From an uncultured Pseudomonadales bacterium (GTDB lineage: Bacteria; Patescibacteriota; Microgenomatia; UBA1400; PJMF01): 64,000 bases of DNA. The stretch covers positions 140,718 through 204,717 of the forward strand of contig CAYOQI010000003.1 in the NCBI GenBank assembly GCA_964406075.1, given 5' to 3'. A program made the position numbers and the translations under genes. This document shows positions 6,263 through 60,714 of the stretch, in pieces. Each line of letters opens with the position of its first letter. Position 1 is the stretch's first letter. The notes beneath the pieces were generated by a model that had not been told where the DNA came from, ran no database searches, and saw only the letters and a list, made by a program, of their open reading frames with translations.

Positions 6263-6853
6263 ATGGATACAACATCAATTAATTTTCTCAAGCAACGACA
6301 GAAGGCTCTGACAGCAGCAGTAGTGACCGACAGAAGGTATGTGGTGTGGATGTCATATCTACTCATTGGGGTAATTATTTTAGGTGTAATTGTGTTTGGA
6401 TTCGATTTCTTTTTACAGCGGAGTATTGGACGTGTGAATGCTCAACAAGATGAAATTGATATTGAGCTTCGTCAACAAAGTCAGATTGAAGAAACATATC
6501 TGCAATTAGCTGAAAAAGTAGGCGTGATTGATAAGATTTTGACCGGAAGAATAGAAAAAAGACAGACATTGCAGTACTTTACTTCCCTATTCCTAACAGA
6601 TGATATCGCATTGAAAGAGATTGGTTTTCAGTCATCTGAAGTTTTAGAATTTGTGATTGTTTCTTCAGATGTATTTACTCTCGAGCAAATACTTGATCAA
6701 CTCGAATCTGAAGAAGTCCAATCTCGATTTGCATCTTTGAGCACAACGGATCTTGCACGAAACACACAAGGACAATATTCGATGCGAGTAAGTGTAGGTT
6801 TAAAGAAAAATACACAACCCAGTCCACGGCCGACACTTGCACCGATAGAATAA
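6263..6853 (+). CDS. pilN: PilN-like bitopic pilus assembly protein
   Basis: A short cytoplasmic N-terminus, a single TM helix (VVWMSYLLIGVIILGVIVFGF), then a coiled-coil. Synteny after pilM supports the call. Confidence 0.6.
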   Translation: MDTTSINFLKQRQKALTAAVVTDRRYVVWMSYLLIGVIILGVIVFGFDFFLQRSIGRVNAQQDEIDIELRQQSQIEETYLQLAEKVGVIDKILTGRIEKRQTLQYFTSLFLTDDIALKEIGFQSSEVLEFVIVSSDVFTLEQILDQLESEEVQSRFASLSTTDLARNTQGQYSMRVSVGLKKNTQPSPRPTLAPIE

Positions 6854-28874: not shown

Positions 28875-30779
28875 TTAGTTTGATTTAATTTGAAAGAATT
28901 TTCGCTTCCCCACTTTAACGACATCGAGATTTACGGCTGCTACTTTAAAGTATGGATCGTTTGGATGTTCTTTTTGTCTATTTTTATATGTTAACTCAAT
29001 TGCCCCTTGATCAATCAGTCGACGTAACTCAGATTTACTTGCTTTTGGCTGAATCTCGACAAGAAGTTCAAGCAAAGTCAGTGATTGATCCTTGAGTTTT
29101 ATAATTGGGATATCATCCGGAGCTTCTTTTTTCTGAACAGTTTTTTCAAAAAACTGAGCGGCGGCTAAGGCATCAGCTTGAGTGTGATACATCTTGGTGA
29201 TACTGAATGCCAACTTCTTTTTAAATATCAGTGGGTTCATTCCTTTTTCCATTTCCTCTTTCATTTTTTCGATTGAAGGCTGAGGCTCATCTGTTAATAC
29301 TGTGAAATACAACAGAATCATGTCATCAGAAATTGACATCAATTTCCCGTACATGTCGTTTGGAAGCGCAGTCAATGCGATAAAGTTTCCAAAGCTTTTA
29401 CTCATTTTCCGACCATCAGTTCCAGCAATAATTGGAGTTGTTAACACCCATTTTTCTCGATTATTAAAGCTTTTTTGAAGTTGTCGACCCATCATCATGT
29501 TAAAAGTCTGATCATTGCCACCAATCTCAAGATCAACATCCAGTGCAACAGAATCATAGCCTTGCAGTAACGGGTAAATAATTTCATGACCGAAAATCGG
29601 TAAATTATTTTTCAATCGATCCTGAAACATATCTCGTTCAATCAATTGTTGAACGGTTGTTTGTGCCAGCAACTTCACCATATCAACATATGTCAGCTTA
29701 TCGAGCCATTCACCGTTGTAGACAATCTTAATTTTTGAAAAATCTAGTATTTTAGCTGCTTGTTCTTTCCAATCTTTAAAATTATCAAGAATTGCTTGAT
29801 CCGTCAGCATCGGTCGACTACTATCTCTGCCTGTAGGATCGCCAATTCGTACCGTTCCATTTCCGACCAACAAGAAAACCTCATGACCGAGTTCGGCAAA
29901 TTGTTGGAGTTTCCTGAGTACTACTGAGTGACCAAGCGTGAGCAGTGAACCAGTGGGATCAATTCCTAAATACACTTTGATCTTCTTTTTTTTCATCAAC
30001 GTTCGCAACGCATTTTTGGTGGGAAGAACCTGTGTGACGCCGCGAGTTAAAACTTCTTCCAGACGCAAATCTTCTGGCGACAACTGAGTTTTTATGTCAA
30101 TCTCACACTCTGGTGATGTACGAGAGACGATAAACGATTCTACTTTTGCCCCAAAGTTTTTTTCTAAATCAGTTTTCACTTTTTGCATTAAATCAATTAA
30201 TTCTTGCTCTGGAATTCCATCGAACGTATCGATGGGAATGAAAATGGAGTTGGTTGTTTCTGTCACTGCGGATGTTTTACCTTGTCGCCAAATCCAGTTT
30301 CGAGTTAACACCGTTTTTCCACTGGAGTATGCGAAAAAATGCTCCTCCATAAATTCGGGAAATTCTTCTCCTCGTGCAAAAAACGCATCTTCAGTATTTG
30401 TTCTTCTAACTTCGATGTCATCTTCTAACCACTCGATATCATGGGCTCCAATCGGAACTGAATGTTGGATAGAAATGGCATTAAAGTAATCAACTAGAGG
30501 TGAAATTCTTGGGAGTTCTTTTTTCTCAGTCAGTCTTTCGAGTAATGCGACGTGAGACGGTTTCACTGTATTTGCCATCCCATGTTTAGTAAACGCTTCA
30601 GTCCATTCTTGAAATGGTCGATTTTGTACTGTCGGTAGTTGCTGAGATTGTTCGACTTCTTTTGTTAACTTCGCCACAAAAGATTGAGCTTTTTTTTGAT
30701 CAATTCTTGTAGCAACTAACACTCCAATTTTGTAATTGGGAAAAAGTTCAAAGATTTCTGGTGAGACTGAAAATTTCAT
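28875..30779 (-). CDS. tyrS: Tyrosyl-tRNA synthetase fused to an N-terminal B3/4 (PheRS-beta editing-like) domain
   Basis: The C-terminal ~380 aa carry DPTGSLLTLGH (HIGH-type), IGDPTGRDSSRP, KMSKS and a C-terminal S4-like segment (KSELRRLIDQGAI). The N-terminal ~240 aa carry PLVDYFNAISIQHSVPIGAHDIE, which resembles the B3/4 motif seen in this window's own PheT (VIDITNYITHELGHPCHAFDYD). Confidence 0.8.
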   Translation of the reverse strand: MKFSVSPEIFELFPNYKIGVLVATRIDQKKAQSFVAKLTKEVEQSQQLPTVQNRPFQEWTEAFTKHGMANTVKPSHVALLERLTEKKELPRISPLVDYFNAISIQHSVPIGAHDIEWLEDDIEVRRTNTEDAFFARGEEFPEFMEEHFFAYSSGKTVLTRNWIWRQGKTSAVTETTNSIFIPIDTFDGIPEQELIDLMQKVKTDLEKNFGAKVESFIVSRTSPECEIDIKTQLSPEDLRLEEVLTRGVTQVLPTKNALRTLMKKKKIKVYLGIDPTGSLLTLGHSVVLRKLQQFAELGHEVFLLVGNGTVRIGDPTGRDSSRPMLTDQAILDNFKDWKEQAAKILDFSKIKIVYNGEWLDKLTYVDMVKLLAQTTVQQLIERDMFQDRLKNNLPIFGHEIIYPLLQGYDSVALDVDLEIGGNDQTFNMMMGRQLQKSFNNREKWVLTTPIIAGTDGRKMSKSFGNFIALTALPNDMYGKLMSISDDMILLYFTVLTDEPQPSIEKMKEEMEKGMNPLIFKKKLAFSITKMYHTQADALAAAQFFEKTVQKKEAPDDIPIIKLKDQSLTLLELLVEIQPKASKSELRRLIDQGAIELTYKNRQKEHPNDPYFKVAAVNLDVVKVGKRKFFQIKSN

Positions 30780-49580: not shown

Positions 49581-49654
<74 letters not shown>

Positions 49655-49734
49655 CCCTTTTTGACTGATGCGCTTGTCCCGTCCAACGAAGTCAGGCGGG
49701 AAATCTCGAGCAGAGCGAAGATCCTCTGTGAGGG

Positions 49735-51511: not shown

Positions 51512-54253
51512 ATGGAAGAAGAAAGAAAAAAACAGAAAGAGAGCGAGATTTCCCAAACTCTTGAATCTTTTAGTCGTGGTGAACGGAATGATTTCATCCG
51601 TATTGGGAAACGTTTAGCCGAATATCTTCACGAGAATAATATCCGTCGGATTGTTTTTTTGGATGCAGGGGCGCGATCTGCCTATCTTTGTCTCCTAGAA
51701 TCCTGGCATCGATTATATCCTCAAGAGACACATCCGGAAATTTACTTTATTAATCCACTGGGGCTAAATACCCAGGAGATGATGGATGATGTAGTGCCAC
51801 CAAAAAAACTGTCTCGTATTTCAGTGCTGAGTGCAAAACACGCAATGAATGAAGTTTCAGCTGAAGATTCGAAGAAAGGTGGAGAAACGACTCGTGCCGG
51901 GAGAACAAAAGTAGAGGTACAAGAAGAATTTGAGTCTACCTACCGTCAATTGACTAAAGATAAGGAGTCCTCTCTTTTAGTGTTTGATACATGCCAACAT
52001 ACTGGTTTGTCGACAGATCCTATACTTCGAACTTTAGAACAAATTGGATTCAAAGATGTGCAGCTTGGATTAGCTTCGCAAGTCAATGATCTCACAACAA
52101 CACAACCAGATTTTATAGCGCTGAAAGGTGAAGCCCACGGTCGTTGTTACCCTTTTGATAGAGAGAGTCTGATTAAAAAACGCTGGGACTCGGTTCTTTC
52201 TCTGCCTGTTACTTCTGCCAAAGAAAAACACAAAGGTATTGTTTTACGTCAAACAATTAAAAGAATTTTTGATGTTCAATGGGATGTGGTAGTAAAACCA
52301 GAGCCTGTAATGAAGTTAGAGCGTCTGGGCTTTCCGAATGAAACTGTGATTACTCGCCCACCAAGTGTAGATCTTTTTTATGCTGGAAAAGAATCAAATT
52401 CTTTTTTACCAACCGAAATTGCAACTCATCCAACATTGATCGAACAAGCGAGAGAACGACGGATAATTCACGCTCGTTTGCATAAAGTTTTTACGAAAAT
52501 TCCTGATGTGAGAATGGGTTGGAGTACCGCTTTAGAGCAAGGTTTGATCATAGAGGAAGATATTCAAGAGGTATATCAAGAATTATTGCGTTTTCTCCAA
52601 AGTGATCCCAACAATGCTCGTATCCTGCTTTACCTCCCATTTGAGATGCTACTTTCTAGCTCTGAATTAAATCATCTTGATGACAGCATTGGAACAGAAT
52701 TTCAGAAAATTTATCACCATAAATGGTTACGGTTGCTCTTTGAAAACGAGCCGAGAGTCAATTTTGTAGATGGAGATATTCCCGAAGTAGAACTTGGGAG
52801 AGGTGAGCCGGTTATTGTCCATAAAGCAGCTCATATGATTCCTGAACTTCTCTCCAAGAAATGGCTGAGTATTTCGTATGTCATTGCTATTTTAGAGATA
52901 GCTGAAGATGCAGGATTAGAAAGTGGGATTTTTGAGGGGTTGCAGGCGGCATATCGTCGGAATCTTTTAACAATAAGTGAGATTGATGCTCTTCGTCATT
53001 CTACGCGATCTACTGTAGTAGAGTTTGCTCATATGCTCGATTTAAAAAATTTAGGAAGTTCTGGCCCAATTGTTGAAGAAAAGCCACCTTTTCATCTTGA
53101 AACATTTTTAGCTGGTTTTGAGGAAGAACACCAACTCCATCAGGATATGTATAGTCAGGATTCCCCTTTTGTCCAACAAATGACGAAAGCTCGATATCGT
53201 TGGGAAAAAAAGGATCGTTATGAAAAACTATTGAATCAAGATGCGCTGAAACTTGTACCGGCGCTTCAGGATGATATTCTGGCAGTTCAGGATATTCTTC
53301 CTGATTCCGATCATGTAGATCAAGAAAGATTTTCTCGTTTACTCATAAAAAGTATTTTTTTGACCACAGAATCATTGGCCAATGAAAATAAAGATCAGGC
53401 AAAGACTTTTTTTGAAAAACATACGGCATTTTTGGAAAAAGCATGGAATGTTGAATCGCTCACTGTCCGAAACGACCTTTATAGTGGGTGGTCCCATCTT
53501 ATTCACCTAGACATTCTTGCACCTGATTATGTCCATCAATTTAATCTTCAGCTTCCAATTATCGATACACCTCAATCTGCTGATCTAGAGAAATTAGCAA
53601 AAAATGAATTGCAAGGAGTTCAACATGCACTTAAACTCATGGAAAGCGATGATGTTCTTCAACAAAACTTTTATCCAGTTTTTGTGTTGTGGGGATCAAG
53701 AATAAAAGGGTATCCGACTTTGGAATCTGATACAGATTTTATTGGTTTTCAAAAAGAAGCCACTGCGAATGATACTCGTTCAGTTGAAGATTCCGAGGCG
53801 ACAATTGCACAGGCTGTAGAAGGTAAAGATAGTTTATTGAAATTTTTAGTACAAGAAGAAAATGGTAAGTACAAGATTATGCACTTACCTACTCCAAAAG
53901 AAGGGTATATAAGTCCAACAGTTACTCAGCCTTTATTGGGAGCAGTGTGGATAGGAGATCAAGAAATAGTAAAAAAAATACAAGGATCAGTGATTGAAAG
54001 ATTTGTCAATTTAGAGCGATTTGGAGAAAAGAAGGAAGAAGTTCGATCACGATTATTACGAAATCTGGAAGGTGAAACTTTGCAAGCTCGTCTTCTCCAC
54101 CGTGGATATCGATTTTTCTATGCGGATCAAATACCAGCTGAAATAAAGCAAGAAAAAGCTATTGATGGAGATAGTGCGTTTTGGGATCCAGGGTACCGCA
54201 GAATGGCAAGCCAATTATTTCTCAGTCGGGTCTTTTTGCCAGATCTTAGTTAA
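51512..54253 (+). CDS. 913-aa orphan protein with an N-terminal PRTase-like motif and a C-terminal Pol-beta-type nucleotidyltransferase motif
   Basis: SLLVFDTCQHTGLS is PRPP-loop-like. LWGSRIKGYPTLESDTDFIGF matches the GS-x(n)-D-x-D minimal NTase signature. Confidence 0.45.
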   Translation: MEEERKKQKESEISQTLESFSRGERNDFIRIGKRLAEYLHENNIRRIVFLDAGARSAYLCLLESWHRLYPQETHPEIYFINPLGLNTQEMMDDVVPPKKLSRISVLSAKHAMNEVSAEDSKKGGETTRAGRTKVEVQEEFESTYRQLTKDKESSLLVFDTCQHTGLSTDPILRTLEQIGFKDVQLGLASQVNDLTTTQPDFIALKGEAHGRCYPFDRESLIKKRWDSVLSLPVTSAKEKHKGIVLRQTIKRIFDVQWDVVVKPEPVMKLERLGFPNETVITRPPSVDLFYAGKESNSFLPTEIATHPTLIEQARERRIIHARLHKVFTKIPDVRMGWSTALEQGLIIEEDIQEVYQELLRFLQSDPNNARILLYLPFEMLLSSSELNHLDDSIGTEFQKIYHHKWLRLLFENEPRVNFVDGDIPEVELGRGEPVIVHKAAHMIPELLSKKWLSISYVIAILEIAEDAGLESGIFEGLQAAYRRNLLTISEIDALRHSTRSTVVEFAHMLDLKNLGSSGPIVEEKPPFHLETFLAGFEEEHQLHQDMYSQDSPFVQQMTKARYRWEKKDRYEKLLNQDALKLVPALQDDILAVQDILPDSDHVDQERFSRLLIKSIFLTTESLANENKDQAKTFFEKHTAFLEKAWNVESLTVRNDLYSGWSHLIHLDILAPDYVHQFNLQLPIIDTPQSADLEKLAKNELQGVQHALKLMESDDVLQQNFYPVFVLWGSRIKGYPTLESDTDFIGFQKEATANDTRSVEDSEATIAQAVEGKDSLLKFLVQEENGKYKIMHLPTPKEGYISPTVTQPLLGAVWIGDQEIVKKIQGSVIERFVNLERFGEKKEEVRSRLLRNLEGETLQARLLHRGYRFFYADQIPAEIKQEKAIDGDSAFWDPGYRRMASQLFLSRVFLPDLS

Positions 54254-54259
54254 AATTTT

Positions 54260-54306
54260 CCTTTCGTCCTTTTGGACTCATCAGTAGAGATACACATCTC
54301 TAAAGG
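54260..54306 (-). ncRNA. Hammerhead ribozyme core (type III topology) with a very short stem III
   Basis: The minus strand reads CCUU|UAGAGAU-GUGU-AUCUCUA-CUGAUGA-GUCC-AAAA-GGAC-GAAA-GG. All invariant core nucleotides are present (C3-A9, G12-A14, A15.1/U16.1, H17=U). Stem I is 7 bp, stem II is 4 bp, and stem III is only 3 bp locally. Confidence 0.7.
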
Positions 54307-54340
54307 TTAGGGCAAGAGTTTTATCTCCTTCTTGCCCTAA
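54307..54340 (-). other. Perfect 11-bp hairpin immediately 5' of the hammerhead
   Basis: On the minus strand UUAGGGCAAGA-AGGAGAUAAAAC-UCUUGCCCUAA. Confidence 0.6.
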
Positions 54341-54357
54341 ATATACTATCAATACGA

Positions 54358-54786
54358 TTAATTCTGTTTGGCCCAGTCCATGAGGGTTTTTAAGATGCTC
54401 CCCATGCCTTTCACCAGCAGGTTGGCTTTACTGAGGAATGTTACATCATCCCCAAATAGAGCGTCTGCTAGTTCGACCAAATCGTCGATGCCTTTCACGC
54501 TCACCAAGTATCCGGCCCGCGCATCTTTAGTAAAGACGTTTGGCGGGGTGATCGCTCGGAGCAGTAGAACTTCCTGTGACGCAAATTGTTGCCAATCAAA
54601 ATCCGAATAGAACATATGTTCGTTCATCCGGTTTCGGTTTTGAATGAGCCACATTCCGATTCGGGCGACGCTTCCTTCACGCAGATTGCGCTCAGGAAGC
54701 ACGATTGAAAGGAAATCTGCCAAGAACTGGCTAGAGTTCGTCGTCGTGAAACCCATTGCCAGTGCCGGGCAGGCCCCCCTCTCCAA
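54358..54786 (-). CDS. Island orphan protein F (up to 142 aa)
   Basis: A high-GC ORF. The first two Mets overlap the end of gene E by 56 or 26 nt, and an alternative start at 54654 gives 98 aa. No motif was recognised. Confidence 0.45.
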   Translation of the reverse strand: MERGACPALAMGFTTTNSSQFLADFLSIVLPERNLREGSVARIGMWLIQNRNRMNEHMFYSDFDWQQFASQEVLLLRAITPPNVFTKDARAGYLVSVKGIDDLVELADALFGDDVTFLSKANLLVKGMGSILKTLMDWAKQN

Positions 54787-55777
54787 TGTTACGAGTGCGG
54801 CGGCGAGGCATGACTTCCGGGCGACGCGGCTGACGACTGAGCTGAACCTTCATAGTGGGCAATGCGCCCATACGGGCCGCCTGATTGTAAGCGGTAGTAG
54901 CAGCCGGGAATTCGCCGCGCAGCGCCAAACGTTTGACACCAGGTTTGATGTGATCGCGCAACCAGGCCAATTTGCTCTCATCCCCAGGGGTTACCTCACG
55001 GGTTTGAGTGGCGGCCAAGAAGACAACCTGACGAACATCGAGTGGAACGCCATTCCAGGAAATGCGGCCAGTGCCAATTCCACTCTTCGGTAGCGCCTGT
55101 GTTGGGTTCACCGGGTCGGCATCATAGATGCTTTGCGCATCGACGCCAACTTTGATGACTTCATAGCTGTTGCTATCAGGGTCATACCAGACACCATCCA
55201 CAGCAGGCGGAAAACCTTCTTCCAGTGACATGATATACGCCACTGTCTGTTCGGCGTTAACGCTACCATCATCATTGATGACTACGATAGGAGTACCCAG
55301 TCGACGTTCGATCTGCCCCATAACCAGGTAAGGCATGTTGCGGATCTTTGGACTGTATCCGCCGACGATCTGAGGAACTGGTAGCATTGAACTCATGTCG
55401 AAGTCGCCAGCACCAGCGCCCATCGCGCTGCCCATGTTGCCCATGAGCAAAAAGGTCATGAGTGTACCCTGATCCATACCCAGGGTGTTAGCATAGGAGC
55501 TAACCGCCGCCGGAGTTGGGTTTGCGCCTTCAGCAATTTCTTCTTCTGTGACTTGGTCGGTAGCTGGGACGGCTGGCATGTTGTAGTGGGAGACGATCTG
55601 AGCAGCCTTGATTGGTGTCAGCTTGACTTTGTGTTTGGCAACAGTCAACATTTCTGTGGTGACATGTTGCATACTTTCCGCGTCCTCTGCGCCCAGGGCT
55701 GCAATCGCATCGATTTGCGAGGCAGTTAACCCGAACATATTGGACAAGTCTTCCCGCAATTCATTCTTCATTGTCAT
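54731..55777 (-). CDS. Island orphan protein E (348 aa) with an Arg-rich C-terminal tail
   Basis: A long high-GC ORF. It has a Gly/Met/Ala low-complexity stretch and a C-terminal RQPRRPEVMPRRRTRN. No family was recognised. Confidence 0.55.
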   Translation of the reverse strand: MTMKNELREDLSNMFGLTASQIDAIAALGAEDAESMQHVTTEMLTVAKHKVKLTPIKAAQIVSHYNMPAVPATDQVTEEEIAEGANPTPAAVSSYANTLGMDQGTLMTFLLMGNMGSAMGAGAGDFDMSSMLPVPQIVGGYSPKIRNMPYLVMGQIERRLGTPIVVINDDGSVNAEQTVAYIMSLEEGFPPAVDGVWYDPDSNSYEVIKVGVDAQSIYDADPVNPTQALPKSGIGTGRISWNGVPLDVRQVVFLAATQTREVTPGDESKLAWLRDHIKPGVKRLALRGEFPAATTAYNQAARMGALPTMKVQLSRQPRRPEVMPRRRTRNIGEGGLPGTGNGFHDDEL

Positions 55778-55878
55778 GATACTGTTCCTTTGCCTTTCAT
55801 CACTTAGGATGTTATATTTTGCCCAAATGGGCGCTTCTTTTTGGTCAAGTGTGCCACCATCGCGAAATGCGTGACCTA

Positions 55879-55921
55879 TATGGTGCAGACTAAGGAAAAA
55901 TTATCCTCACTCTGCACCATA
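55879..55921 (-). promoter_or_regulatory. 11-bp perfect hairpin in the 5' leader of gene E
   Basis: TATGGTGCAGA at 55879-55889 pairs with TCTGCACCATA at 55911-55921. The 21-nt loop contains a nested AGGA/UCCU pair. Confidence 0.5.
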
Positions 55922-56080
55922 CAGATCTTAAAAAACTTTTTGTATTGATAGTATGAACAAGAATAATAACTGCTTATTTAGTTCGTAACGAACATAAGCC
56001 GATAGTATTCTTGGTTGTTAACGAGCTCTAATGCGAGCATTAGACCGTATAGTATAGCATTTTTATGCTATAAGATAAGT

Positions 56081-56155
56081 CTGTTCTCTTTCGTCCTTTA
56101 CTCTGCGTAATGCAGAGGGACTCATCAGTACGGATTTTATCCGTAGAGAGAGCAG
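56081..56155 (-). ncRNA. Hammerhead ribozyme, type III topology, complete
   Basis: The minus strand reads CUGCUCUCUC|UACGGAU-AAA-AUCCGUA-CUGAUGA-GUCC[CUCUGC-AUUAC-GCAGAG-UAAA]GGAC-GAAA-GAGAACAG. Stem III is 9 bp with one C/A mismatch, stem I is 7 bp, and stem II is extended. The cleavage triplet is CUC (NUH). Confidence 0.85.
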
Positions 56156-56296
56156 GGACGGTTGCTTGATCTTGGGGAAGTTCGAAGAAATAAGTGTCGT
56201 GTGACACTAGTCCAAACTCACCGATCAAGTCACCGTCTTCTCTTTCCGGGAGGAAAGAGCCTGCTTGCTATAAGTAAAGAGTGTTTTATTTTTTGA

Positions 56297-56662
56297 TTAG
56301 AAGCGTTCTATCACATTCCAGCGCATTTGCAGACTTCTCAGACTGCTTTGTTGAGCTTGATGATAAATTGCCAGGGCAGTGTATTCTGCGTCCGACGATT
56401 GCATTTCGAGGCTGCTGAAGATGCGTTGCATATACTCCAGGTGATTCGTTTTCTCTGCCGGATCGTACATTGTAAGCCCAGCATCAATTCGTTGAACCAT
56501 AGTCTCGTCTAAGCCAATCTGTTTGGCGAGGTTTTTGAGCAATAGTTGCTTCATGGTCTGATCCGGTCCAATTTGTGAAACCAGTGATTCTATCAAAGGA
56601 TCATTGGCATGAATCAGGAGGCGAAGTAAGTGGATGCGTTGTGCTAACGTTTGTGTTGACAT
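56297..56662 (-). CDS. Island orphan protein D (121 aa, helical)
   Basis: An ORF starting 15 nt after the PurA-like gene. No motif was recognised. Confidence 0.5.
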   Translation of the reverse strand: MSTQTLAQRIHLLRLLIHANDPLIESLVSQIGPDQTMKQLLLKNLAKQIGLDETMVQRIDAGLTMYDPAEKTNHLEYMQRIFSSLEMQSSDAEYTALAIYHQAQQSSLRSLQMRWNVIERF

Positions 56663-56677
56663 GAGATTTCCTCTTTC

Positions 56678-58114
56678 TTAGGTGAATAGATATTCGTAGC
56701 CAGGAACGACTTCCGCTTGTTTGACTTCGGGGCCATGACTAGTCATGACGACTGGAATTCCGATTTCGGCTTCGACTCTTTTTAAAAGAACTTGTTCGAG
56801 AGTTTCGGCTTTGGTCGGAGTGACATGCGTGATTACGGGTCGACAGTGATTTAGAAGTTGCGTTAAGCGCATCTGATGGGCCAAATGGGCATCATCGCGG
56901 GTATCAGGATGAACCCGAATAGCAACGATTCTTCCCTGCTTGATCACAAAATACTGATCGAGATCGTTGGGAACTTCACCGACAAATCGGTAGGCATTGC
57001 AAATGGGCCATTCGTCCCAACCCTCTAGATCATCAAGATGACTCATCGCGAACCCTTGGTACTCGTTCTGACCGTTTACACAGTCCATGCTGTACCGTAG
57101 AGCGACGAAATCAAGTGGACCAATCCGAAATGGACCGAGCCAACTTGTTTTATCATTGTCTCGATCTGGATCAATGGCATCACCGAAATCATCATCTTGT
57201 GTAACTAGCGGTCCATTTCCATGTCGATGTGCAAATGGCCGTAACGCTAAAATGCGAACGAAGCGATAACCCTTACCGACTTTACATGTCTGACGTAAAA
57301 TTTTGATCAGGGTAGCCCCGGTTGGATCAACTTGACTCACGTGTGGAGCAAAGCCGTAGTAAGGATGCAATAAAATTCCATGCGATCCTTCTACCACGAT
57401 ATTTCCGGCTGCTAAAATTGCTTGTTTGAATTCATTATCATTAATGATTCGAACCCATTCGGTAAGATTTTGCATTGTTCGTGCAGTTGCTTCAACGACA
57501 CTACTACTCCGTAACAATTCCATTTCTTCCCAGGCAGTTCCAATATCTTCAAGGTCAAATTCTCTGATTAAGGCTTCCGCCTGCTTCAGTTTCTGTTGAC
57601 GCACCTTTTCAATTCTTTTTGTTAAAAGTGCCAGATTTGAGAAATCACCTGCTCGGATTGCTAAGTCTGGGTAGGATTTGCTGTCGGAGATAGCTTCACC
57701 GACTCCCATTCCAACCGTTCCTTTTTTGGTTCCAGTTAAATCTCGAACCTTTTCTCGGAAACGACTGATCGCACCATGAAATGGTGTGATGGAAAGACAT
57801 CTGTGATGAATCTGAATTCGTGCGAACATATTCTCAGCAAGACCGAGTTGTTCAAGTTCCTCAGCCTCATCGAAAAGCAAAAATGGATCGATGACCATGC
57901 CTGCTAAGATTGTGTTTACATCAGGAAAAAAGCTGCCACTGCCGTAATGCGAAAAGGCGTGTGACAACCCGTTGGAAAGTACGTAATGAGAACCATTACA
58001 GCCCCCATATCGTACGACCGTTTTTGCATCGATAAGCTTGCAAGCTTCAGCAGCAAAACGGCCTTTGGTTTCTTGCCCCCAAAGTGGGCCGCCCATTGTT
58101 ACAATGATTGGCAT
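56678..58114 (-). CDS. Divergent adenylosuccinate-synthetase (PurA)-fold protein
   Basis: By-eye alignment to E. coli PurA gives these matches: GGPLWGQETKGR vs GTQWGDEGKGK; VVRYGGCNGSHYV vs VVRYQGGHNAGHT; KGTVGMGVGEA vs IGTTGRGIGPA; VEGSHGILLH vs FEGAQGTLLD; HRHGNGPLVT vs TRVGAGPFPT; MSHLDDLEG vs LTKLDVLDG; TSHGPE vs STGPDR. Confidence 0.7.
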   Translation of the reverse strand: MPIIVTMGGPLWGQETKGRFAAEACKLIDAKTVVRYGGCNGSHYVLSNGLSHAFSHYGSGSFFPDVNTILAGMVIDPFLLFDEAEELEQLGLAENMFARIQIHHRCLSITPFHGAISRFREKVRDLTGTKKGTVGMGVGEAISDSKSYPDLAIRAGDFSNLALLTKRIEKVRQQKLKQAEALIREFDLEDIGTAWEEMELLRSSSVVEATARTMQNLTEWVRIINDNEFKQAILAAGNIVVEGSHGILLHPYYGFAPHVSQVDPTGATLIKILRQTCKVGKGYRFVRILALRPFAHRHGNGPLVTQDDDFGDAIDPDRDNDKTSWLGPFRIGPLDFVALRYSMDCVNGQNEYQGFAMSHLDDLEGWDEWPICNAYRFVGEVPNDLDQYFVIKQGRIVAIRVHPDTRDDAHLAHQMRLTQLLNHCRPVITHVTPTKAETLEQVLLKRVEAEIGIPVVMTSHGPEVKQAEVVPGYEYLFT

Positions 58115-58148
58115 TGGCTTTTCCTTAGGAAATTAGAAGTGGGTCTCG

Positions 58149-58174
58149 ACATGTCGAGACCCACAGAACGAAAC
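58149..58174. promoter_or_regulatory. Perfect 26-nt palindrome between island genes B and C
   Basis: GTGGGTCTCGACATGTCGAGACCCAC is fully self-complementary. Confidence 0.6.
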
Positions 58175-58180
58175 GAAAGG

Positions 58181-59476
58181 TTAGAGTTGCTCCCACTCGA
58201 TATCATCGTCGTCGGCCAGATTATCTGGTGTTGTTGGCGATGATTGGATGTTGACTACTCCTGATTTCTTTTTGTGCGCCGAACCGACGACAGCGTCTGC
58301 GATCGACGTAAATTGAGTTACGAACTCGGATTTCGGGTCGGGTAACCCTTGCTCTTGCCAAGGTGTATACAGAGGATGATTGATGTCCCACTCATTGACC
58401 GGATGGTCAAATTCTGATCCCATCGCGGGATACTGAACTTTGGGTTGAGCGCCTCTTTCGACGTTAGCATCTACGATACACTTCACGATCCGTTGTGCGT
58501 CCGGTGCGCCCATCGAGTAGTTGGAGCCGCGTGTTGCAGTCATGATGAAGTCTGCGGTATTTGATTCAGTCGCGTCGCTGTTTTCTGTCCAATAGACGAC
58601 TGCGGCTTGCATAGCAGCGGTATACCGAGGATTGGGATTGTAGATTACATGACCTTTCCCTAATACTCGAGTCCACCAGGCATCAACCTGTGGTCTGTCA
58701 CGATGAACGTTGAAGAAAAATGTATGCATTTTCTTCCCAAGTTCTCGACCCAGCTCGACGGTTGCAATGTCGCTTTGAATATCTGCGCCGAGTTGCTGAC
58801 GAACTAACCATGCTTCTACGGTATTGCGTCCTTCTTGATCACTGATTAAAAAGCCATAAGGAAGAAGTCCATACCTGAGGCTCCAGGCTTCTGTTCGCCA
58901 CCACCACTGTGCCAATACAAGTTGACCTTCTTCGATGCCGTCTTTCCCGTCCATGCCGGGAATTAACAGCTTGTTCTGATCTAAGATTTTGTCCTCATCG
59001 GCCTCAATCATAGTAGCCAGAACAGCTACACTTCGGCCATAGGATAGTCGTCGGCCTTTCTCATCAGGATATGTATCGTCATCTCGGTCTTGGAACAGCA
59101 TGACATTAACCTGGTCGTTCTGATCGGGATGCACCACATGAGTGAAACCCACATATGACCCTGTTTGCCTGAATGATTCTTCATATTCCTTTTCAAATGA
59201 GTATGTTGAATCTACGGCCAGAGATGAATATCGAGCGACGCCATACTTCAGGGTGAATCGCCAAATAGCTTGCGTCTTATCGACTTCGTATGAGTTGCGC
59301 GAACTTCGTGGGCCACTGAGCGGATCGGCGAATTCGTGCAACTTGCCCGTGATTTGCACTTGTTGTTGAGCTTGTTGACTAATGTGAACGGCTCCACGGC
59401 TGGCGGCAGCAGAGGCTTTTTGTTCATAAGCCTTGCTGTTTACTTCCTTAGCGGTAGTACTTGTTGAACATGCCAC
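58181..59476 (-). CDS. Island orphan protein B (431 aa) with an acidic C-terminus
   Basis: A long high-GC ORF. It has a Trp-rich segment (QWWWRTEAW) and the C-terminus DDDDIEWEQL. No family was recognised. Confidence 0.55.
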   Translation of the reverse strand: MACSTSTTAKEVNSKAYEQKASAAASRGAVHISQQAQQQVQITGKLHEFADPLSGPRSSRNSYEVDKTQAIWRFTLKYGVARYSSLAVDSTYSFEKEYEESFRQTGSYVGFTHVVHPDQNDQVNVMLFQDRDDDTYPDEKGRRLSYGRSVAVLATMIEADEDKILDQNKLLIPGMDGKDGIEEGQLVLAQWWWRTEAWSLRYGLLPYGFLISDQEGRNTVEAWLVRQQLGADIQSDIATVELGRELGKKMHTFFFNVHRDRPQVDAWWTRVLGKGHVIYNPNPRYTAAMQAAVVYWTENSDATESNTADFIMTATRGSNYSMGAPDAQRIVKCIVDANVERGAQPKVQYPAMGSEFDHPVNEWDINHPLYTPWQEQGLPDPKSEFVTQFTSIADAVVGSAHKKKSGVVNIQSSPTTPDNLADDDDIEWEQL

Positions 59477-59497
59477 TTTCTCATACCTGCTTTCTAT

Positions 59498-60571
59498 TTA
59501 AATCGGATAGAGTTGAAATTCGTGAAATGGACGTTGCCAGTTACCTTCGTTGTTAATAAACTTCGGCCACGTGGCATCGCATAATTCGTAAAGGCGTTTA
59601 TGCTCTTGAAGAGCAGTTCCGCAATTACCCGATAAGATGTGTGTGAAATGGCGCGTGAAAATTTCGTACTGCGCCTCCGTCATAATATGTGAGTCATATG
59701 GAAGTGTTAACTTTCCGTCAGACCACATTCCGCCGGCAAACTGTACGTAGATCATCGCCGCTTGTTGTACTTCCCGCTTTTGTTGTTCCAGTGTCAAGTA
59801 ATCATGCTGTTTCGCGTATCTCCAATCAAAAATGATCGGAAGATGTTGCTTTCCAGCAATGAGAATGTTGGCTGGAGCGATGAATCCGTTGGTGATGTCC
59901 TTGCTATGAATCCAAGCTAGGATTTTGAGGAGTTTGCCGTCTAGCCAAGCTCCTCCTAGGTCACCTCGTTGTTTTTGCGTCAACAACCTACTGATAGGAT
60001 CGATTTGCGCCAATGTTTTGATAAACCTTGGATATGCCATGATAAACATAAAACGTCCATCAGGCATATGTTGTGTAGCGACAACTTCCGGAAAGAAAGA
60101 ATGATGGTAATATCGTTCTTCTTCAGGCAAGCTGTCATCCAAATCGAGCGACGCTTGACGGAGACCTTGCATGAGCGAGCTTTCATGCCGTAATGCTGCT
60201 GCATTGGCGACGATTTGTTCAATCGGAAGACTTTTAGTATCATCATCCGGTTGGTTCTTCGCAGACACCTTTGCAATGCCGAAACGACCATTAGGCAAAG
60301 AACAAACATAGAGTCGATAATTTTTATTAACAACCCACGGTCGTCCTGCGGTTGTGAGAAACATTTGGTATGTCTGTTTCCCTATTGTCACTGAAGTGTA
60401 TGGTTGTAGTTTCTTTCGAAACTCAGTAACTTGAGGGTCGCCAATTTCTGGGAGTCCTAGCGCAAGTTCTGCTAACCAAACAATTCCCTCACTTTCTATT
60501 TCTATCGGAGGTCCTGTCACTATCTTCTTACCTTTCGTTTGTCTAAATATCTTCTGTTTCTTTGTAACCAT
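59498..60571 (-). CDS. Island protein A: protein-kinase-like fold with non-canonical catalytic residues
   Basis: FGIAKV (a beta3 Lys-like segment), the catalytic-loop-like HSKDITNGFIAPANILI (the HxD position reads NGF) and PIIFDWRYA (the DFG position reads FDW). The start is taken at MVTKKQK (60571); the ORF track starts at 60637. Confidence 0.5.
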   Translation of the reverse strand: MVTKKQKIFRQTKGKKIVTGPPIEIESEGIVWLAELALGLPEIGDPQVTEFRKKLQPYTSVTIGKQTYQMFLTTAGRPWVVNKNYRLYVCSLPNGRFGIAKVSAKNQPDDDTKSLPIEQIVANAAALRHESSLMQGLRQASLDLDDSLPEEERYYHHSFFPEVVATQHMPDGRFMFIMAYPRFIKTLAQIDPISRLLTQKQRGDLGGAWLDGKLLKILAWIHSKDITNGFIAPANILIAGKQHLPIIFDWRYAKQHDYLTLEQQKREVQQAAMIYVQFAGGMWSDGKLTLPYDSHIMTEAQYEIFTRHFTHILSGNCGTALQEHKRLYELCDATWPKFINNEGNWQRPFHEFQLYPI

Positions 60572-60714
60572 GGCGAAAAAACAGCCACGTGTATGGACTA
60601 AAAATCCACACAATGTGACTGTCAATGCCATGGACACTCTTCACTTGTTAATGTACCCCCATAAGAAAGCAAATATGTCTGTGAAGACAAATAACTTTCG
60701 GATGGGTGTATACA

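Follow-up and report, generated by a model that had tools for sequence, protein, structure and literature searches.

The DNA analysed here, a 64,000-nt stretch of contig CAYOQI010000003.1 that we call the window, carries on its minus strand a type III hammerhead ribozyme sequence (hammerhead #1, or HH-a) within a block of genes that we letter A to G. HH-a occupies a non-coding gap of 519 nt (55778-56296) between the open reading frames (ORFs) D (56297-56662) and E (54731-55777), and stops 303 nt short of the E start codon. It had been picked out by a model from the letters of the window; on rereading 56081-56155, the minus-strand sequence given in that original prediction is exact, the gap of about 520 nt that it described is the one just measured, and the invariant core, the three helices and the type III topology were all found as claimed. 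The ribozyme call therefore stands, but the element is not the solitary one that had been described, because a second hammerhead of the same sense, HH-b, lies 1.85 kb away, and the two (56155-56081 and 54306-54260) bracket the gene pair E-F. What had been called an 'island' is a cassette conserved on the chromosomes of the tiny bacteria of the candidate phyla radiation (CPR), and not a phage island. The parts of HH-a are as follows.

56081..56155, minus strand: HH-a, type III hammerhead, 75 nt, recognized by its sequence, its match to RF00008, its minimum-free-energy fold and its orthologous copies
56155-56147, minus strand: 5′ strand of stem III, CUGCUCUCU
56146, minus strand: C17 (H17 is C, i.e. 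not G)
56145-56129, minus strand: stem I, UACGGAU/AUCCGUA, 7 bp, with an AAA loop
56128-56122, minus strand: core, C3UGAUGA9
56121-56118 / 56096-56093, minus strand: proximal stem II, GUCC/GGAC, 4 bp
56117-56112 / 56106-56101, minus strand: distal stem II, CUCUGC/GCAGAG, 6 bp
56100-56097, minus strand: bulge on the 3′ side of stem II, UAAA
56092-56090, minus strand: G12A13A14
56089-56081, minus strand: 3′ strand of stem III, A15.1 at 56089, then GAGAACAG at 56088-56081

Read from 56155 to 56081, the minus strand is CUGCUCUCUC UACGGAUAAAAUCCGUA CUGAUGA GUCC CUCUGCAUUACGCAGAG UAAA GGAC GAAA GAGAACAG, so that the 5′ strand of stem III is followed by C17, the stem I hairpin, the core, the stem II hairpin, GAA and the 3′ strand of stem III. 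Loops close stems I and II, and both ends of the molecule lie in stem III, which is the type III arrangement. Stem III has nine positions, with one C/A mismatch, and contains the pair A15.1 (56089)-U16.1 (56147). The pairs next to the core, G10.1 (56121)-C11.1 (56093) and U1.1 (56145)-A2.1 (56129), are both Watson-Crick pairs; candidates lacking Watson-Crick N10.1-N11.1 and N1.1-N2.1 pairs were rejected by Perreault et al. 2011 (PMC3088659). HH-a has all the sequence and structural features of a type III hammerhead, and falls short only of the Rfam annotation threshold. Cleavage is predicted between nucleotides 56146 and 56145, and the original prediction had placed the site correctly. Fast hammerhead cleavage at physiological Mg2+ requires a tertiary contact between stems I and II; in HH-a the A-rich loop I (AAA) and, in stem II, the UAAA bulge are candidate partners for such a contact, and A-rich loops or bulges are also found in the relatives of HH-a in the family alignment.

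The covariance model of the type III family, RF00008 (Hammerhead_3), aligns with HH-a over positions 1-54 of its 54, with a score of 38.4 bits and an E-value of 6.8e-7 locally or 9.7e-5 window-wide, the latter calculated, like all window-wide Rfam E-values given here, for 64 kb, both strands and all 4227 families. The covariance-model check named in the original prediction has thus returned a significant match (E ~1e-4 window-wide), though one below the gathering score of 48.5 bits, which is a threshold for annotation rather than a structural requirement. The shortfall is mainly a result of a 19-nt insertion in stem II and of the mismatch in stem III, and it means that HH-a is overlooked by routine annotation; indeed, a whole lineage of true hammerheads sits under the gathering score, and so goes unseen. 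HH-a has in common with RF00008 (clan CL00010) an identical core, a three-way junction and an open stem III, and differs in the stem II insertion, which forms a second helix and the UAAA bulge, and in its host, which is a CPR-like bacterium and not a viroid, satellite, plant or phage. The minimum-free-energy fold of the 75-mer (-26.2 kcal/mol) is likewise the hammerhead secondary structure; when a few flanking bases are added an alternative fold competes with it, which we judged not unusual. The RAGATH-1 hammerhead (RF03152) likewise contains a CUGAUGA...GAAA core, but its model scores HH-a at no more than 16.7 bits (cut-off 56.3, E = 3.5) and forces different helices upon it, and HH-a is not a member of that family. 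Neither in the window nor in 15 related loci did any other ribozyme or RNA family reach its gathering score.

Loci around homologues of gene E were fetched and the proteins of the window were mapped onto them by tblastn; these loci carry L numbers below. A descriptor scan first gave type III hammerheads beside E in L002, L003, L005 and L013, and a covariance model, R1, was built on six hammerhead sequences. One of the six was HH-b, and its R1 score is for that reason not independent evidence. Against 445 kb of cassette loci, R1 gave 14 matches with E <= 8e-6 (including L051 and L052) and nothing further up to E = 10, and in loci added later it gave three more, L056, L057 and the viral contig L053. 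This makes 16 hammerheads in all, distributed over 13 of the roughly 45 distinct cassettes, and every one of the 16 lies on the sense strand and borders E or E-F. Hammerheads stand upstream of E in the window, L013, L040 and L051, downstream of E-F in the window, L013, L031, L040, L048 and L057, and between E and C, in cassettes with a second gene order, in L002, L003, L005, L009, L052 and L056. The window, L013 and L040 thus have E-F bracketed by two ribozymes, and in L040 this module is placed between B and C instead of following C.

The viral contig (L053, IMGVR_UViG_3300027816_000524) has no cassette genes; its type III hammerhead, at 6563-6622, has the same GUCC-AAAA-GGAC stem II as HH-b. 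It was the one unrelated contig returned by a search of viral contigs with a generic HH-b core, and it shows that the minimal core is not specific to the cassette, as expected for hammerheads. A search of the viral contigs for the stem II and UAAA bulge pattern of HH-a gave 0 matches.

Among the 14 sequences aligned, standard base pairs occupy 91.4% of the cells assigned to helices, compared with 29-54% when the partners are slid along one another; 11 of the 17 pairs show compensatory changes, and none of 500 shuffles reached the observed covariation score. This alignment was fitted with the model, which favours the structure, but eight of the 14 sequences were outside the R1 training set, and RNAalifold independently gives all three helices, with compensatory changes in nine of 15 pairs. 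When the intergenic regions between C or B and E of four loci are aligned, the invariant columns fall chiefly within the ribozyme and the sequence on either side has diverged, and in the family alignment CUGAUGA is invariant except at N7 and in one copy with a U4C change. What the analysis shows is a hammerhead that is canonical in sequence and fold, conserved with covariation, and tied to the borders of E or E-F.

We also considered whether such sequences might be chance look-alikes or decaying relics that do not cleave, or cleave to no consequence. A score below the Rfam gathering value, the absence of hammerheads from most cassettes and the defects in two sister copies, namely U4 to C in the downstream copy of L013 and the loss of stem III from the downstream copy of L040, would all fit such a view. 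The match of HH-a to an independent curated model at E ~1e-4 does not, and neither does the preservation of the 13 invariant core positions in 15 of the 16 cassette copies, though the flanks cannot be aligned and the E proteins are only 45-65% identical; compensatory changes, moreover, are seen in all three helices. We give this explanation almost no weight: for HH-a it is very unlikely, and for some of the downstream copies it is more plausible.

The second hammerhead of the window lies 52 nt past the F stop codon and 7 nt from that of the convergent gene G, and is preceded by a long hairpin.

54260..54306, minus strand: HH-b (hammerhead #2), type III, identified by its RF00008 match and by a full reading
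54307..54340, minus strand: perfect 11-bp hairpin, UUAGGGCAAGA...UCUUGCCCUAA, found by inverted-repeat search and folding

HH-b reads CCU-U17-UAGAGAU-GUGU-AUCUCUA-CUGAUGA-GUCC-AAAA-GGAC-GAA-AGG, with the cut predicted immediately after U17, between 54303 and 54302. Its core is perfect, and its loops, GUGU and AAAA, are identical in the copies of L002, L003, L031, L048 and L052. The RF00008 model matches it at 54302..54263 with 25.7 bits (E = 0.37 window-wide, 0.0017 local), a match that does not include stem III. The hairpin directly abuts the 5′ strand of stem III, on which, short as that stem is, it could stack. The downstream hammerheads of L013, L031, L048 and L057 likewise have a long hairpin 0-1 nt ahead of stem III, so that one is present at each downstream hammerhead whose stem III is intact, and the upstream product of cleavage would therefore end in a stable stem-loop followed by a few nucleotides.

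Between the two hammerheads, the untranslated regions (UTRs) on either side of E-F contain the arms of an inverted repeat.

55942..55954, minus strand: 5′-UTR arm, AUACUAUCAAUAC, complementary at 13 of 13 positions to 54343-54355
54343..54355, minus strand: 3′-UTR arm, GUAUUGAUAGUAU, 3 nt past the F stop codon

The 11-mer of the repeat occurs in two exact copies in the window and nowhere else in it, and none of 200 shuffles gave a repeat as long as 13 nt. The same 11-mer pair is present in L040; the repeat of L051 carries three compensatory substitutions (ACGCUAUCGAU / AUCGAUAGCGU), L057 has a 13-mer of which the variable half covaries, and L013, L006 and L015 have unrelated 10-mers at the two corresponding sites. 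This pattern of 10-13-nt repeats favours pairing of RNA with RNA over a fixed site for a protein, without proving it, and suggests that the repeat of the window forms an RNA panhandle between the 5′ and 3′ UTRs. In L057, the 5′ UTR of the E homologue also contains, between the start codon and the arm of the UTR repeat, a long tandem repeat of the heptamer TTAATTC (620-725), with an inverted (GAATTAA)n stretch just before it.

The RNA on the 5′ side of HH-a is conserved in one related locus.

56160..56290, minus strand: conserved leader 5′ of HH-a, aligned with L040 (3510-3647), two sequences only

This leader, of about 150 nt, is homologous in the window and L040 and has two hairpins (56259-56240 and 56208-56193) set between conserved single-stranded blocks; both differ in sequence between the two loci and keep their pairing. 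On the strength of these two examples the leader may represent a terminator that is leaky, or else an RNA motif that has escaped recognition. A conserved block, TTGTTCATACTAT, when inspected by eye, showed no fit to -35/-10 spacing.

Taken together, these features make it highly probable, as judged from sequence, that HH-a is a functional type III self-cleaving hammerhead, located on the chromosome of a CPR-type bacterium within a conserved cassette, and that it releases a discrete E-F mRNA. Most of our confidence lies in the first part, that this is a real self-cleaving hammerhead; the specific role in processing or stability is less secure. A cut by HH-a in a polycistronic RNA, separating D from E, is plausible. 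Cassette-strand transcripts extending as far as 56155 would fold into HH-a and cut themselves after C17 (56146), leaving the upstream RNA with a 2′,3′-cyclic phosphate and the downstream E-F RNA with a 5′-OH, the first 65 nt of the latter being the compact body of the ribozyme. HH-b, just past F and before the end of the convergent G, would make the second cut (54303 from 54302), severing any read-through antisense to G and giving the E-F RNA a 3′ end composed of the 11-bp hairpin and CCUU, ending at U17 with a cyclic phosphate. The product would be a discrete E-F mRNA with structured, non-canonical ends and with UTRs able to pair through the 13-nt repeat, and such processing would uncouple the stability and dosage of E-F from those of the neighbouring genes A-D.

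Several observations weigh against this interpretation. HH-a scores 38.4 bits against a gathering score of 48.5, so that a default Rfam scan of the window lists three tRNAs only, and the gathering score was not reached by any of 12 relatives of HH-a in 10 of the loci scanned. Hammerheads are missing altogether from around 70% of the cassettes, and the ribozyme is therefore dispensable for the cassette. Stem III of HH-b is just 3 bp long, which, together with the downstream copy of L040 that has no stem III and that of L013 in which U4 is replaced by C, means that some of the downstream copies may be weak or dead. The leader hairpin at 56208-56193, between D and HH-a, resembles a terminator and is followed by a U-rich tail, and for this reason the substrate of HH-a may be a read-through transcript, or else a leader made from a promoter of its own; no convincing sigma-70-like promoter was found on the minus strand between D and E. 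Finally, organisms differ in how a 5′-OH affects mRNA stability; where RNase J1 is at work, as in the glmS case of Bacillus, the effect is destabilizing.

The bracketing of E-F could also serve a different end, in which the two hammerheads excise the E-F RNA for circularization, the panhandle bringing its ends near to one another and an RtcB-type ligase, or reversal of the hammerhead reaction, joining them into an exonuclease-resistant circular mRNA; in nature, this would parallel the circular RNAs designed with flanking ribozymes, and also retrozyme RNAs. The ends left by hammerhead cleavage, a 5′-OH and a 2′,3′-cyclic phosphate, are substrates of RtcB, same-sense hammerheads bracket E-F in three loci, and the 5′ and 3′ UTRs are joined by the covarying complementarity of 10-13 nt. 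The arms of the repeat are not terminal, however, being set back from the cleavage sites by about 190 nt and 40 nt, and L051 and L006 carry the repeat with no downstream ribozyme. A hybrid hammerhead able to religate the ends is excluded in the window, where the 5′ strand of HH-b stem III pairs with two bases of the HH-a 3′ strand; the corresponding hybrid stem III has 5 bp in L013, the only locus where it is possible, and does not exist in L040. No RtcB gene was seen in the window, in which no search aimed at RtcB was made. Circularization was likewise raised as a possibility for clustered bacterial hammerheads by Perreault et al. 2011 (PMC3088659), who did not detect circles. We consider this outcome unlikely for E-F, and the same holds for the bolder proposal that the hammerheads, the 3′ hairpin and the covarying panhandle together constitute a dedicated RNA-excision module that produces a circular or closed-loop E-F messenger in CPR bacteria and has moved as a unit within the cassette. 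Were this doubtful proposal true, it would represent a natural bacterial protein-coding mRNA, circular or in panhandle form, made by ribozymes.

The cassettes with a hammerhead between E and C raise a further alternative, in which the ribozyme acts as a switch on the translation or expression of the next gene, stem III hiding the ribosome-binding site until cleavage frees its short 5′ strand. In five loci with the order B-E-hammerhead-C, the start of C is preceded, at 1-8 nt, by GAAAGG(G)A, which belongs to the core and the stem III 3′ strand and is the sole Shine-Dalgarno-like sequence there.

GAAAGG(G)A before C: L003 7280-7291; L005 7255-7271; L009 6165-6180; L052 5237-5253; L056 5150-5162

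The window does not fit this scheme, since HH-a ends well before E and HH-b has no downstream gene on its own strand. A switch of this kind may hold for the E-hammerhead-C subfamily only, and as a general account of these ribozymes we find it quite improbable.

The reading that we prefer, release of an E-F mRNA by self-cleavage, can be compared with systems already described. In glmS and other self-cleaving elements of 5′ UTRs, cleavage of the leader gives a 5′-OH mRNA with a stability unlike that of the primary transcript; by analogy, HH-a would act in the same manner, leader self-cleavage setting the fate of the mRNA. The ribozyme class is different, however, there is no sign of a ligand here, and a second ribozyme also sets the 3′ end. 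Retrozymes and the engineered twister-flanked 'Tornado' RNAs resemble the E-F unit in having two flanking ribozymes and complementarity between the ends of the excised RNA, but in the E-F unit the complementary stretches stand back from the very ends, a hybrid hammerhead cannot form in the window and the insert is a 1.8-kb protein-coding bacterial RNA.

The closest parallel is provided by the clusters of hammerheads that flank individual genes or small gene blocks in polycistronic RNAs of bacterial prophages, described by Perreault et al. 2011 (PMC3088659), examples of which cleaved in vitro, and one also in E. coli; processing into gene-length mRNAs was the role proposed, and these cleavage assays bear it out in part. 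In those clusters, as here, at least two hammerheads of the same sense bracket one or two genes within a few kb. The genes flanked there 'are not constant', and their surroundings are those of a prophage or integrase, whereas here the setting is chromosomal, with no prophage or integrase neighbourhood, and the hammerheads track E or E-F across CPR lineages despite the rearranged gene order; the ribozymes are also accompanied by the 3′ hairpin and the UTR inverted repeat. A literature search found no paper tying hammerheads to adenylosuccinate synthetase paralogues, CPR or Patescibacteria. The kind of ribozyme is familiar, and what makes it informative is its recurrent, E/E-F-specific placement on the chromosome. 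The roles of most bacterial hammerheads are unexplained, and the known ones stand beside varying prophage genes; the E/E-F-linked hammerheads, with variants in which they are present or absent and with two gene orders, offer a handle on what hammerheads do in bacteria, and their accessory features (the 3′ hairpin, the UTR panhandle and, in one subfamily, the Shine-Dalgarno sequence of stem III) lead to testable predictions on mRNA ends and dosage.

The window itself is part of a cellular, CPR-like genome, with genes for RecG, TyrRS, PheT, a class A penicillin-binding protein and MgsA and with three tRNAs, and in related loci the cassette lies next to genes for ribosomal proteins, RF-1 and other housekeeping functions. 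A phage origin was considered and rejected, the PHROG matches of A and C notwithstanding, because of these housekeeping genes and because a blastn search of the phage collection gave no match and viral contigs yielded no relative of E. The genes of the cassette in the window are the following.

59498-60637, minus strand: gene A, kinase-like, phrog_3043
58181-59476, minus strand: gene B, conserved in synteny
56678-58114, minus strand: gene C, adenylosuccinate-synthetase (PurA)-like, Pfam PF00709 (1.3e-40), phrog_1211
56297-56662, minus strand: gene D, found in this window only
54731-55777, minus strand: gene E, 348 aa, with an N-terminal SAM/HhH-like domain and an arginine-rich C-terminal tail
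54358-54756, minus strand: gene F, 132 aa, overlapping the end of E by 26 nt, with a gene call in L001
51512-54253, plus strand: gene G, 913 aa, the convergent last member, with tblastn synteny in nearly all loci

The cassette as a whole (51512-60637, six to seven genes) is conserved in genomes of Roizman-, Falkow-, Ryan-, Shapiro- and Sungiibacteria, Paceibacterota and Saccharibacteria. The commonest order is A-B-C-E(-F), converging on G; the second order is B-E-C, and that of L040 is A-B-E-F-C, both also converging on G. In the window, the minus-strand block A-F (54358-60637) has a G+C content of 0.45-0.49, compared with 0.37-0.41 for G and the flanks. Searches of Pfam, PHROGs, NCBIfam and PADLOC for the function of the cassette yielded only the PurA-like and kinase-like assignments, and searches of Protein Data Bank (PDB) sequences with A, B and G gave no match. 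Gene C scores 124 bits against the NCBIfam purA model, far below the cut-off of 396, and on sequence grounds it is best described as a paralogue of adenylosuccinate synthetase.

Gene E has 115 database homologues, the named ones mostly from metagenome-assembled genomes of Parcubacteria, Ryanbacteria, Pacebacteria and similar groups, and some of them have a Pfam match to SAM_TNK; the AlphaFold2 model of E (pLDDT 85) gave no significant Foldseek match in the PDB. Gene F is confined to a subset of cassettes, with tblastn matches in L006, L013, L015, L031, L040, L048 and L051, and the homologue of G in L052 has a weak Pfam match to the Polbeta nucleotidyltransferase domain.

Two further observations concern parts of the window away from the cassette. 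Antisense to a tRNA gene, at 49581-49655, the Rfam family 'Plastid-ycf2 5UTR' matches with 44.4 bits against a cut-off of 65.7; we regard this match as almost certainly artefactual, the model itself containing tRNA-like sequence. At 28875-30779, on the minus strand, the window encodes a tyrosyl-tRNA synthetase (the TyrRS mentioned above) of 634 aa with an N-terminal B3/4 domain, which has the fold of the editing domain of the phenylalanyl-tRNA synthetase beta subunit; the Pfam matches (B3_4, 1.8e-20; tRNA-synt_1b, 1e-65) identify an unusual fusion.

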